Assembly: GCA_963715335.1 (NCBI GenBank)
Contig: CAVQRZ010000023.1
Location: forward strand, 83,711-147,710
Length of the DNA: 64,000 nucleotides
From: an uncultured delta proteobacterium
Lineage (GTDB): Bacteria; Desulfobacterota; Desulfuromonadia; Desulfuromonadales; BM103
Direction of reading: 5' to 3'
In this document: positions 2,728 to 60,600 of the stretch, one piece after another
Position numbering within the stretch: the first letter of the stretch is position 1
Layout of the letters: each line of letters starts with the position of its first letter
The notes under the pieces: generated by a model
Told to the model about the DNA's origin: nothing
Databases searched by the model: none
What the model saw: the letters and a program-made list of their open reading frames with translations, nothing else
Program-made: the position numbers and the translations under genes

Positions 2728-2786
2728 GCGTTACAACAGACTGCAGAAAATAAAGGGCGGCCCATAAAGCCGCCCCGGATTGTTGA

Positions 2787-2820
2787 CAAACCCCGCACGT
2801 GATGCGGGGTTTGTTTTTTT
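2787..2820 (+). terminator. Rho-independent terminator of hcp
   Basis: CAAACCCCGCA-cgtga-TGCGGGGTTTG followed by T7. Confidence 0.85.
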
Positions 2821-2850
2821 ACCTGGCAGGTGAAGCTTCTATAAAGCATG

Positions 2851-2877
2851 GGGCAACAGATGGTTAATCTGTTGCCC
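2851..2877. repeat. REP-like hairpin GGGCAACAGAT-GGTTA-ATCTGTTGCCC, copy 1
   Basis: Perfect 11-bp stem. The same hairpin occurs at 32186, 32694 (inverted) and 58253. Confidence 0.85.
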
Positions 2878-3032
2878 TCCTAAACATCAATGCTGAAATT
2901 TGTCAGCAGCCTGGAGCGCCCCTTTTGCCATCGGCTTAAACTGTTTTTCGTGACAAACAAAAGGCCCCCGATCCGCAAAGAGGGGGCTTTTGAATTTTAT
3001 AGGCAGTGACACACGACGATCAATGCAAGCTT

Positions 3033-32071: not shown

Positions 32072-32119
32072 ATCAGCCAACAAAAAGCCCCGGGGATTTC
32101 CCGGGGCTCAGATTGTTGA

Positions 32120-32155
32120 CGAACCCTGCACGTGATGCGGGGTTCGTTTTTTTTT
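32120..32155 (+). terminator. Rho-independent terminator of the fumarase gene
   Basis: CGAACCCTGCA-cgtga-TGCGGGGTTCG followed by T9. Paralogous to the hcp terminator. Confidence 0.85.
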
Positions 32156-32185
32156 GCCTGTCAGGTGGAGTATTTATGAAGTTTA

Positions 32186-32720
32186 GGGCAACAGATGGTT
32201 AATCTGTTGCCCTCGTTCTCTTATTTGAGATCCAAACACAAAAGTTGAAGAACAAAACCGTCGGGGTTGCCCGACAGCAACTTCATTTTCTTTGTAGCGA
32301 CAAAGAAAGGAAGCAAAAGAAAGCTTGGCGCTACGCTGGGCATGTCTGGCTCGGCAGGGCGGCGACCTCAATGCAGAACGTTCTAAACGATCAAGAGTCT
32401 ACGCTTCACCCGCAGGAGCCGAGGCTCTTGAGAGCCTCTCCTGCTGTGGAGACTTGCGTTGATAGAGGTTGTTTTGGCTTTTCCCTGGTAGATCACACGG
32501 CAAGGTCAGGCCCTTTGACACAGGGCCGGATCACCATCACAGCGGGTTCTTGAAGTCACAGACATCCGGCAAAGGAGATGCCCTCCGCAAGGAGAAGGCA
32601 CTTTTGCATACTTTTGTTGCCGGACAAAAGTATGGCGTCGGGCGGGACGCGACCCGCCGGTTTTGCTTTTAAGCTTTTCAAGAAAAGCAAAAAGGGCAAC
32701 AGATTAACCATCTGCTGCCC
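32186..32720. repeat. About 0.5-kb structured non-coding element, copy A, bounded by inverted REP-like hairpins
   Basis: GGGCAACAGATGGTTAATCTGTTGCCC at 32186-32212, and its inverted variant at 32694-32720. The interior is highly similar to 58253-58765, and no ORF is conserved between the copies. Confidence 0.8.
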
Positions 32721-32836
32721 TCTCTATCATGAATTCAGGTTAAACTTTTACAGCAGCCCCGCCCCGGGGGTTTCCGGGTGTTTTTAATTTCATGGCGGCG
32801 AAGAGAAGACTATTGAGAGAAGACAAGCTGAGATAC

Positions 32837-58176: not shown

Positions 58177-58252
58177 GACAAGAAAGGCAGCTCCAGAAGT
58201 AAGAGCCGCCTTAAGTCTGCTGACAAAGTTCATCCAAAATTCGTGATGGAGA

Positions 58253-58765
58253 GGGCAACAGATGGTTCATCTGTTGCCTTTTTCCATTGGACGTTGGAAT
58301 TCAAAGACAAAAGCAAAACCCGGGGGTTGCGCCCCCCGACTGCGCCTTACTCTTTTGCTGGCCCAAAAGAGTAAGCAGAAAAAGGCCTGCGCTGCGCTGG
58401 GCATGTCTGGCGCGTCAGGGCGGCAACCTCAATTCAGACAGGGCTATCCGACCAAATGTCTACATTTCCCCCGCAGGTGACGAGGCTCTTGAGAGCCTCT
58501 CCTTTCGTGGAGATTTGCGTCGATAGGGGTTGTTTTGGCTTTTCCCTTGTAAATCACACGGAAAGGTCAGGTCCTTTGACACAGGGCCGGATCCCCATCA
58601 CAGCAGGTTTTTGAAGTCACAGAAATCCGGCAGAGGAGATGCCCTCCGCAAGGAGAAAGGCACTTTTGCATACTTTTGTTGCCGGACAAAAGTATGGCGT
58701 CCGGCGGGACGCGACCCGCCGGTTTTGTCTTTCCGAAAAAGCAAAAGGACACAGATGAAACGGCC
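58253..58765. repeat. About 0.5-kb structured non-coding element, copy B
   Basis: Begins with GGGCAACAGATGGTTCATCTGTTGCC. The interior matches 32186-32720 closely from about 58389 to 58745. The right-end hairpin is degenerate. Confidence 0.8.
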
Positions 58766-58788: not shown

Positions 58789-59412
58789 TTAGCCCCACAG
58801 TATCCTGCCTCCGACGAGAATCAACAGACACCCCAGAATTCCCTGGATCACCGGACGGTAGCTCAGGAACAGTGGTTGGAACGTCCGACTCGACACCAGG
58901 CAGGCAACGCTCGTGTACCAGACCAGCGAAATCAGGAACATCGAGATATTCAGGAATACTTTGCCCCACAATGGAAAATCCGGACCCATCACCAGGGTGA
59001 AGAGACTCAGGTAAAAGGCCCAGGCCTTCGGGTTGGTCAGGTTGGTCAACATGCCGGTCCGGTAAGGCACCATGGCTGACGACCCGATCGGCTTGTCCGT
59101 TGCTTTCGGAACAAGCTCACTGCGGCGGGTTCGCAACATGCCCAGGCCAATCCAGGCCAGGTAGCCGCCGCCGACAAACCGCATGATCTCGGCAAAGTGC
59201 GGTAGCGAGTGGACTAACGGCAACAAGCCGACCAGACCGGCGAAAGCAAAGATCCCGCTGCCGGTGGCCACCCCCATCGATGTCAGAACACCTTCACTCC
59301 GGGAACGGTTCAAAGCAGTGTTGGTCACGAGGATAAAGTTTGGTCCTGGTGAAATGATAGCAAGGGCGAAAACCCCCAGAAAAGTAAATATGGCCGGCCA
59401 GATTGATTCCAT
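58789..59412 (-). CDS. LysE/RhtB-family amino-acid exporter
   Basis: 207 aa, six TM segments. ISPGPNFILVTNTAL motif. Confidence 0.85.
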   Translation of the reverse strand: MESIWPAIFTFLGVFALAIISPGPNFILVTNTALNRSRSEGVLTSMGVATGSGIFAFAGLVGLLPLVHSLPHFAEIMRFVGGGYLAWIGLGMLRTRRSELVPKATDKPIGSSAMVPYRTGMLTNLTNPKAWAFYLSLFTLVMGPDFPLWGKVFLNISMFLISLVWYTSVACLVSSRTFQPLFLSYRPVIQGILGCLLILVGGRILWG

Positions 59413-59536: not shown

Positions 59537-59888
59537 TGGTGGAGGTGGCGGGAATCGAACCCGCGTCCGAAAATCTTTCACGTCAGGCGTCTACATGCGT
59601 AGTTCGTGTTTTGCTTAACCCGTAAGAGCTCCCACGAACAGGATATTCTTGCGGGGGAGTCCGCTTAAGTTTCGCCTTCACGCCACGGACACTCGCGAAG
59701 ACTATCCCACTAAATTAGCGTCTCAAAACCCACATGGGCGATGAATCAGGAGACGAGGCAGCAATTAAGCTGCCAGTGCGTAACGAACGTCAGTGTCGGC
59801 GTTTGTTAGTGTTGGGCTTTGTTACGGAGCCAGCCCACTCCGGCATGCAACCAGCGCTTCCAATCCCCGTCGAAACCTTGGCACCCCC
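59537..59888 (-). ncRNA. ssrA: tmRNA (SsrA)
   Basis: 5' end GGGGGUGCCAAGGUUUCGACGGGG. 3' end GCGGGUUCGAUUCCCGCCACCUCCACCA. Internal tag frame 59765-59800 encodes ADTDVRYALAA-stop. Lies adjacent to smpB. Confidence 0.95.
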
Positions 59889-59903: not shown

Positions 59904-59961
59904 GAGAGGCGCGAGGCGAGTGGCGCGAAAAGGATTATTCGCACTTCGCACTTCGCACTTC
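59904..59961. repeat. Heptamer-periodic imperfect palindrome between smpB and ssrA
   Basis: Left arm GAGAGGC GCGAGGC GAGTGGC GCGAAAA. Right arm TTCGCAC TTCGCAC TTCGCAC TTC. Confidence 0.75.
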
Positions 59962-60004
59962 AATAGTCTCATATTTATTGCTATAAATCAATCGGTTAAA
60001 AGAA

Positions 60005-60460
60005 CTATCTCGAGTGATCTCTCACCGCACGGCTGGCCTCTCGATCAGCCTGCTTGCGCTTGAGAGTCTCGCGCTTGTCGTAAAGCTTCTTACCGCGACA
60101 GACGCCGATTTCAAGCTTGGCGCGACTGTCTTTGAAGTAGATCTTGGTCGGCACCAGGGTCAGCCCTTTTTCATCGACTTTTTTGCTCAGTTTGTCGATC
60201 TCGATGCGGTTCAGCAGCAGCTTGCGTGAACGCAGCGGATCGTGGTTCTCGCGGTTGCCCTGCTCATACGGGCTGATGTTCATGTTGTCGACGAACACCT
60301 CGCCATTGCGAATCCGGCAGTAAGATTCCTTGATGCTGACCTGCCCCATGCGAATCGACTTGACCTCGGTCCCCTGCAGAGCAAGGCCCGCCTCGAATAC
60401 TTCGTCAACGAAGTACTCGTGGTAAGCCTTCTTGTTGTTGGCGATAATTTTTATACCCAT
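60005..60460 (-). CDS. smpB: SsrA-binding protein
   Basis: [10 protein letters not shown]...GTEVKS...SRKLLL signature. 151 aa. Confidence 0.95.
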
Positions 60461-60471
60461 AATTAACCGAA

Positions 60472-60600
60472 TCGCGAGGTGCGAAGTGCGAACCGCGAGA
60501 AATCTTTCTCTAGACCAGCATGTTTCAGGATGTCTTAATCGTAAAAGCCGAATAACAAGTTTTTAATAATTATCCTGCCTCGCGCCTCGCACTTCGCGCT
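60472..60600. repeat. Heptamer-type inverted arms separated by a roughly 70-nt AT-rich spacer
   Basis: CGCGAGGTGCGAAGTGCGAACCGCGAG at 60472-60498. CCTCGCGCCTCGCACTTCGCGC at 60577-60598. Confidence 0.65.

Follow-up and report, generated by a model that had tools for sequence, protein, structure and literature searches.

Bacterial MITEs and palindromic repeats such as ERIC/IRU, Correia, RUP/BOX/SPRITE and QMITE are small, non-coding, multicopy, intergenic sequences with terminal inverted repeats (TIRs) and target duplications (TSDs); they carry terminator-like hairpins, are found nested and occur in size variants produced by internal insertions. Some MITEs give rise to sRNAs (PMC10969869). Among insertion sequences, IS1272/TnSha1 of the IS1182 family target terminator hairpins in both orientations and with little primary-sequence specificity; IS1272 removes part of the hairpin without making a duplication (PMC4923244). 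The IS110-family system ISPpu9-ssr9 of Pseudomonas putida includes an ncRNA module with many orphan copies beside palindromic repeats, which has been read as a selfish passenger able to parasitise such a recombinase (PMC12288879). Palindromic sites of 26–28 bp, inverted around a segment that occurs in two orientations, are found in invertible segments (hix/gix, Bacteroides invertons) and in the pdif modules of Acinetobacter plasmids. In pdif modules, the module together with one site is the unit of gain and loss.

The 64,000-nucleotide stretch of DNA from an uncultured delta proteobacterium analysed here (the window) holds two copies of a repeat that are probably members of a large family of non-autonomous mobile elements built in two layers, with an inner cassette inside an outer shell. 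The element has the MITE traits listed above and is a new member of the MITE-like non-autonomous elements, a kind already known, without a match in Rfam. Three of its properties are non-standard for that kind: its TSD is a whole terminator hairpin of 20–32 bp, compared with 2–10 bp in known MITEs; its interior is a palindrome-bounded cassette that is separately exchangeable and invertible; and it is most conserved in a strongly constrained core within that interior rather than at its ends. A further difference is that no parent IS is known for it. Hairpin targeting is the only trait seen in common with the IS1182 family; the element duplicates the hairpin intact. Like ssr9, its non-coding module occasionally lies directly 3' of a DEDD transposase module; here, however, the transposase is part of a complete IS1111-type element that has ends of its own and is inserted into the repeat, shared end boxes were not found in our alignments, inverted palindromes bound the cassette on both sides and the copy number is far higher. 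By comparison with invertons and pdif modules, no recombinase, dif-like sequence or promoter reading out of the segment was found for the element, and its cargo is a conserved non-coding core instead of genes or a promoter.

Two copies in the window and the wider family

A first-pass annotation of the window had proposed a non-coding element of about 0.5 kb that is present twice (copy A, 32186–32720; copy B, 58253–58765). The likeness of the two copies is borne out: the core of copy A (32328–32596, + strand) and that of copy B (58389–58657, + strand) are 87% identical over 269 nt without a gap, and the sequences that follow (32595–32670 and 58657–58732) are 96% identical across 76 nt. Both copies are intergenic and lie between convergent neighbours, fumarate hydratase and an ABC transporter for copy A and a DUF4197 protein and a LysE exporter for copy B, beside which the LysE stop codon is at 58789. 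Copy A folds with a z-score of -9.5 on the + strand and -7.8 on the - strand, and all of the hairpins quoted in the annotation were found (32421–32438, 32607–32634, 32641–32670, 32288–32307 and 58346–58375). We agree with the annotation that the element is not protein-coding, as 1- and 2-base indels separate the two copies and their ORFs are short, overlapping and in no case common to both. Nor did it belong to a recognised RNA family: with the Rfam covariance models, a tmRNA was the sole hit passing the gathering threshold in the whole window, the best scores in 32100–32800 were 13–21 bits against thresholds of 41–90, and permissive thresholds also returned no family there. The element matched no known IS end.

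The family is far larger than two copies. A scan of species-representative genomes with an 18-mer from the core returned at least 98 stretches, and a scan of sediment metagenomes with a 20-mer from the central hairpin returned at least 120 contigs. Together these yielded at least 130 full-length cores with 70–91% identity to copy A; because the search patterns demanded an intact core block, this sample is biased toward intact cores. Of the genome loci listed, about two-thirds belong to a small number of Desulfuromonadales-like 'delta proteobacterium' assemblies, with at least 28 in a single MAG, and about one-third are single hits in unrelated taxa, at which the element is absent. At least 30 copies occur in one genome. 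The diversity of copies within a genome is high, unlike that left by a recent burst. Plasmids and viral contigs were also searched and gave no matches to the element, and a plasmid or phage origin was rejected on this basis. Genome papers on Geobacter and Pelobacter describe many multicopy intergenic sequences, and the element is not recognised in their main text.

The outer shell and host terminator hairpins

BLAST coverage places the boundaries of copy A at ~32107 and ~32758–32759, a whole unit of ~640 bp. The annotated span of 32186–32720 is thus a real inner cassette, within a full unit that is wider (32107–32759). The left arm of the shell (32107–32185, + strand), delimited by BLAST coverage of 98 loci, recurs at 2778–2850; in copy A it contains the terminal inverted repeat CAGATTGTTGACGAAC (32109–32124, + strand), recognised by end alignment, and a strong terminator-like site that we regard as a built-in intrinsic terminator (32118–32155, + strand). 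The right arm (32721–32759, + strand) terminates in ...TTTTACAGCAGCC, where the family consensus is ...GTCAGCAGCCTG. Alignment of ~60 copies gave a left end of CAGATTGTTGACAAAC and, for the reverse complement of the right end, CAGGCTGCTGACAAAG. Paired ends are spaced 610–713 bp apart with a single exception, a 142-bp unit in the window (2774–2915, + strand) which consists of the left arm, one palindrome (2851–2877) and the right arm, with no cassette. This third copy was missed in the first-pass annotation, as were the inverted palindromes at both ends of copy A.

On either side of a unit, abutting its ends, stands a direct copy of a GC-rich hairpin of 20–32 nt that is specific to the locus. 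Direct-repeat scores ranged from 14 to 29 in more than 30 units, against a maximum of 13 in mismatched controls. Copy A bears the same signature as these other loci, with GCCCCGGGGATTTCCCGG at 32087–32104 on the left and GCCCCGGGGGTTTCCGGG at 32761–32778 on the right, the latter followed by the host T-tract. Across loci the host A-tract stays with the left hairpin copy and the host T-tract with the right copy; the target is therefore an intrinsic and often bidirectional terminator. Two empty sites, each with a filled counterpart, confirm the duplication. Locus L079 is empty, with one TGGCCACCCGGGTTAATTCCCGGGTGGCCC, and L215 is filled, with the element between two copies of this 30-bp hairpin; a second polymorphic site is empty in L045 and filled in L110.

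With its TIRs, its duplication read against empty sites and its small, multicopy, transposase-free interior, the shell (~140 bp; CAGATTGTTGACAAAC ... GTTTGTCAGCAGCCTG) behaves as a MITE. Of the two identities first offered for the element, structured RNA or MITE, the second is accordingly well founded, with dozens of copies per genome and no internal transposase, and the first is plausible only.

On this evidence the shell inserts at the base of a host intrinsic-terminator hairpin and duplicates all of it (20–32 bp). The gene upstream is predicted to be terminated still, because the left arm of the shell brings its own terminator, which would restore termination. The enzymes for both shell and cassette would act in trans, and we expect the mover of the shell to be a hairpin-targeting DDE transposase like those of the IS1182 family. 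An autonomous relative with the same ends was sought as end pairs 1–5 kb apart and as solitary ends beside long ORFs; only chance matches were found in 218 loci (~1.5 Mb) and the window, and no candidate recombinase was found in the ~1.5 Mb of loci.

A cassette exchanged between inverted palindromes

The 27-nt terminal palindrome occurs four times in the window and in none of 100 shuffles. In copy A the left palindrome, GGGCAACAGAT-GGTTA-ATCTGTTGCCC (32186–32212), forms one boundary of the cassette, and the right palindrome (32694–32720) is inverted relative to it, with the loop TAACC, and is followed by a T-run on the - strand. The left palindrome of copy B (58253–58278) has two mismatches; at its right end there is a degenerate half-palindrome, GGACACAGATGAAACGGCC (58747–58765), beyond which the outer arm has been lost, and locus L089 has the same half-site variant. 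In most copies the palindromes lie ~90 nt upstream and 8–18 nt downstream of the core, and ~15–20% of cores are flanked by other hairpins instead.

Between palindrome and core the left arm of the cassette comes in different modules. Copy A has a mirror-image terminator at the left end of the cassette (32250–32275, - strand), an inverted repeat in which the hairpin is followed by a T-run, and then a 'c1'-type hairpin, TTCTTTGTagcgACAAAGAA (32288–32307, + strand). Copy B and most other copies have an X-type arm (58315–58375, + strand), made up of a mirror terminator (58315–58339) and hairpin X, CTTACTCTTTTgctggcccAAAAGAGTAAG (58346–58375), which mirrors the hairpin and terminator on the 3' side. 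These 3' features are the 11-bp hairpin X', CATACTTTTGT-tgccgg-ACAAAAGTATG (32607–32634, + strand), and an intrinsic terminator, GGCGGGacgcgaCCCGCC followed by the T-run GGTTTTGCTTTT (32641–32670, + strand), in copy A, and hairpin X' (58669–58696) and an intrinsic terminator (58703–58732), together 58669–58732 on the + strand, in copy B. The X-type arm of copy B is an imperfect inverted copy of its 3' arm. The hairpins at 32288–32307 and 58346–58375 had been described as a structure-preserving swap. Both exist and both fold, but the compensatory reading was wrong: they are alternative left-arm modules that recur in many copies.

The ~500-bp cassette between the inverted palindromes is present or absent, inverted or replaced when related genomes are compared. 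Presence and absence are seen between the short form in the window (2774–2915) and its orthologue L049, which has the cassette and a second palindrome between flanks that are 88% identical, so that the unit of insertion or deletion is the cassette plus one palindrome. Inversion is seen in L066, the orthologue of the fumarase locus, which holds the cassette flipped relative to the shell. The two orientations are about equally common across the family and both occur in the window: copy B has a shell arm of the 'right-arm' type on its left (58213–58252, - strand; preceded by a host hairpin at 58186–58210), so its cassette is inverted relative to the shell by comparison with copy A. The right end of copy B is decayed. 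Replacement is seen between L013 and L089, in which flanks and shell are 92–100% identical while identity falls to 47–57% just inside the left palindrome and is depressed in variable stretches up to the right one; the left-arm modules and right palindromes of this pair also differ. As shell and flanks remain 92–100% identical while the cassette varies, the palindromes are the points of recombination. The mover of the cassette would be a site-specific recombinase or, as an alternative, homologous recombination stimulated by the palindromes. We note that two palindromes in inverted orientation are a poor fit to simple integration and excision at one site. No other cargo was found between palindromes in the sampled loci, all of which were chosen for containing the core.

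Constraint, folding and the part played by the core

Among 128 distinct copies of the core, invariance reaches at least 95% in 168 columns and stays below 80% in 120. The column classes in alignments of 38 and 128 copies resolve copy A into near-invariant blocks (UGCGCUGGGCAUGUCUGG, CAACCUCAA, UUCCCCCGCAGG, GAGGCUCUUGAGAGCCUCUCC, GCUUUUCCC, GUCACAC and GGAGAUGCCCUCCGCAAGGAG) separated by three variable segments, which are near substitution saturation and conserved in length. The 21-nt 3' block GGAGAUGCCCUCCGCAAGGAG is at least 97% invariant in copies that had not been selected on it. Were the blocks decaying neutrally as fast as the variable parts, one of 21 nt would almost never persist; the blocks are therefore under selection. 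Pairs of copies at the same locus differ at 2.4% of positions in invariant columns and 50% in variable columns. These pairs were rejected as a test of purifying selection in place, as their cassettes had been exchanged; with such exchange, 'orthologous' cores are not strictly vertical, and purifying selection in place is inseparable from selection for mobility. Since cassettes turn over quickly, what is being selected may be how well a cassette spreads, and not a function for the host.

RNAalifold pairs the 5' and 3' blocks in a predicted long-range helix (32332–32347 with 32574–32589 in copy A, + strand) that encloses a multi-branched domain, followed by two hairpins and the intrinsic terminator. 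The hairpin GAGGCTCttgaGAGCCTC (32421–32438) lies between the two arms of this helix. In the 38-copy alignment 97.6% of cells are paired in the predicted fold, and eight pairs show double changes, compared with 3.8 ± 1.1 in shuffles (reached in 1 of 500) and 0–4 in slid controls; with 128 copies there are nine such pairs, against 4–8 in slid controls. Covariation is thus modest, and the double changes of the 38-copy alignment fall mostly in the terminal hairpins. Hairpin X', helix 10 of the model, has them in three pairs, and the terminator at 32641–32670 shows compensatory GC>AU and GC>UA changes in 5 of the 38 copies and 13–16 of the 128. Most helices, the long-range helix among them, never vary and are therefore uninformative either way.

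The + strand has 1249 G-U cells compared with 225 A-C cells, in 22 of 25 copies it has a lower minimum free energy than the - strand, and one hairpin on it is capped by a GNRA loop; RNAalifold energies are similar for the two strands (-133.6 versus -136.7). These observations lend weak support to an RNA-type folding of the core, which is plausible. No sigma-70-type promoter was found upstream of the core, and no sigma-54, ECF or other promoter motif was seen in a check by eye. The variable segments do not fold on themselves (z ~ -0.1 to -0.25) and were rejected as covarying helices, as duplex energies between segments of the same copy equalled those across copies. A search for pairs by mutual information was set aside, its signal being dominated by subfamily structure. 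A guide function for the element's own insertion site was rejected: the longest matches between flank and interior were no better than those in mismatched controls.

With ~170 near-invariant positions maintained in a population that turns over fast, the core may be needed for the persistence or spread of the cassette itself and act as a folded single strand, a proposal whose chances we put at about even. In that case it would most likely be an ncRNA of ~340 nt, read from the + strand of copy A and ending at 32641–32670; an RNA product from the core seems to us an evenly balanced prospect.

Several other explanations have to be weighed against a core that serves the cassette. The core may instead belong to a host-serving (domesticated) family of ncRNA genes, for example trans-acting regulators, with variable segments that set the targets and the shell as a vehicle. 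We hold this to be possible, if doubtful. It would account for invariant scaffold blocks that alternate with unstructured, length-conserved variable segments, and for a diversity within genomes that is not burst-like; moreover, copy B and ~15–20% of copies retain an intact core despite palindromes or shell ends that are decayed or different, although this last point is diminished by search patterns that demanded an intact block. Other observations fit a domesticated gene poorly: no promoter was found, 30 to at least 100 copies per genome would be out of the ordinary were it a host regulator, and no complementarity was seen between the variable segments and their own flanks.

Two diverged copies, L077 and L205, have an IS1111-type element directly upstream of the core, at exactly the same point in both. 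It is 1338 bp long in L077 and 1333 bp in L205 and consists of a DEDD transposase (76% identical between the two), subterminal inverted repeats and a 3' non-coding region which holds a copy of its right end-target junction. This position, immediately 5' of the core, invites the idea that the cassette hitchhikes on an IS110/IS1111-type RNA-guided recombinase and moves as a minicircle into palindromes, in which case the core could be a bridge- or seek-type RNA. In line with such an idea, the indel unit is the cassette plus one palindrome. ISPpu9, for its part, has insertion sites next to a REP palindrome and a similar palindrome at one of its own ends, and orphan ssr9 modules exist (PMC12288879). 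We nevertheless consider the hitchhiker explanation unlikely, as the IS is a discrete insertion (1338 bp) that has ends and a 3' non-coding region of its own; it stands beside only 2 of ~190 core hits (130 full-length and 63 partial HSPs); neither its ends nor its non-coding region is significantly similar to the core; and the core consensus is not significantly complementary to the palindrome. Derivation of the core from the ends or non-coding region of the IS was rejected because local alignments were no better than shuffles, and pairing of a core RNA with the palindrome because its duplex energy fell within those of shuffles. The core sequence GGGCAT(GT)CT resembles the subterminal repeat of the IS, GGCCATCT, over a length too short to count. 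The simplest reading is that an RNA-guided IS1111-type element uses the repeat as a landing site.

Inverted repeats around a segment that is seen in both orientations are what defines an inverton, and the cassette shows them when genomes, as distinct from cells of one population, are compared: palindromes that resemble hix/gix sites are inverted around a segment of ~480 bp, and both orientations occur, including at one orthologous locus. A phase-variable cassette flipped at its 27-bp palindromes by a dedicated invertase could also make use of an inward promoter-like sequence, CTGACA-N17-CATGAT, found in one shell arm in about one-third of copies, which could read either strand of the cassette. 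This seems improbable to us, however. The terminators at both ends of the cassette, with the palindromes, are predicted to block transcription into and out of it, and no difference in expression between orientations is apparent; further, presence/absence and wholesale replacement are more than inversion alone explains, and neither a gene for an invertase nor a promoter pointing outward was found.

Two hairpin-forming palindromes inverted around a spacer also recall a REP/REPIN-type element moved as ssDNA by a Y1 transposase (RAYT or IS200/IS605-type) that recognises hairpins, and the folding bias of the + strand could also arise from G-T pairs in ssDNA. The spacer here is ~480 bp, against tens of bp in REPINs, and the TIRs and long TSDs of the shell are not products of Y1 transposition. 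The end hairpins of IS200/IS605 elements have the same orientation on one strand, unlike the inverted palindromes here. Together these differences make a Y1-moved element very unlikely. Finally, a small protein gene or type I toxin-antitoxin locus can be dismissed almost entirely, despite terminators at both ends, a long-range 5'-3' pairing that recalls hok mRNA and AAGGAG motifs in the invariant 3' block, since no ORF is common to the copies, indels of 1–2 nt occur throughout, and the AUG follows AAGGAG at zero spacing in a frame that crosses the terminator and the palindrome.

We return, then, to a core that serves the cassette. In its most specific form, which we put forward tentatively, the core of ~270–340 nt would represent an undescribed class of structured RNA or a folded ssDNA, and would be the active, self-propagating component of cassettes that move between palindromic docking sites in terminator-targeting MITEs.

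The repeats have practical consequences for the genomes that carry them, whose assemblies they will fragment, and in which they may be taken for regulatory RNAs or CRISPR-like repeats. By the simplest reading they are, in addition, where an IS1111-type RNA-guided insertion sequence specifically lands. If the picture outlined here holds, the shell would represent a transposon family that reads the structure of a terminator and not its sequence and copies the entire hairpin; an insertion that repairs its own damage with its own terminator would be a clean natural case of low-cost insertion, and the hairpin-length duplication constrains how the target is cut by the transposase. The cassette is abundant in sediment Desulfuromonadales, where a genome holds dozens of diverged copies, and has ~170 positions that are invariant; it is a concrete candidate for a new large ncRNA or a new recombination substrate. 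Were the core self-propagating, it would count as a selfish non-coding gene that has recombination chemistry of its own or a cofactor role, and not as a passive passenger.

Insertion of an IS1111-type element beside the core

A complete IS1111-type insertion sequence was found in two diverged copies of the repeat, at database loci L077 (287-1624, minus strand) and L205 (70-1402, plus strand). The insertion point is identical in both, GAAGCA|AAAGAAAGC, immediately 5' of the conserved core of the cassette. The element encodes a DEDD transposase and carries the subterminal repeats ATGCTGGCCATCTG and CAGATGGCCACAT; its 3' non-coding region also holds ATAAGAAAAG, which duplicates the sequence where the element's right end meets the target. 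A seek/bridge RNA guide would be expected to contain such a copy.

Neighbouring features of the window

A tmRNA gene (59537-59888, minus strand; 201.7 bits, full length) lies approximately 0.8 kb from copy B of the repeat. The window is also rich in short tandem heptanucleotide arrays of 3-6 units, the unit being different at every site (5139, 10181, 24043, 24161, 25396, 25940, 40517, 53966, 54646, 59906, 59938, 60474 and 60577). Some of these form an inverted pair (59927-59987 and 60450-60510) flanking an ORF at 60005-60460, and the arrays are reminiscent of a repeat class described from Geobacter metallireducens, the 'four tandem heptanucleotide repeat' elements (PMC2700814).

Shell arm and cassette boundaries

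In approximately one-third of copies the right arm of the outer, MITE-like shell contains an inward-facing promoter-like motif, CTGACA-N17-CATGAT (for example in L010, L018, L080, L193 and L215), with a degenerate form at 32721-32759 and 58213-58252 of the window. The motif stops a few bases short of the palindrome, which looks like a terminator when read in the direction of this motif.

A half-palindrome variant without the 3' stem, GGAC(A/C)ACAGATGAA(A/C)C, recurs at the right end of the cassette both in copy B (58747-58765) and in the unrelated locus L089. It is therefore characteristic of a subfamily and not a product of random decay.

For approximately 15-20% of cores the bounding sequence is not the GGGCAACAGAT palindrome (for example the flanks in L141, L152, L030, L083, L179 and L050). 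The alternative hairpins, such as GGGGACACAATGCAACCAAGTATTGTGTCCCC, have a loop motif in common and variable stems, and are again in inverted orientation, which suggests that there are several types of shell or docking site.
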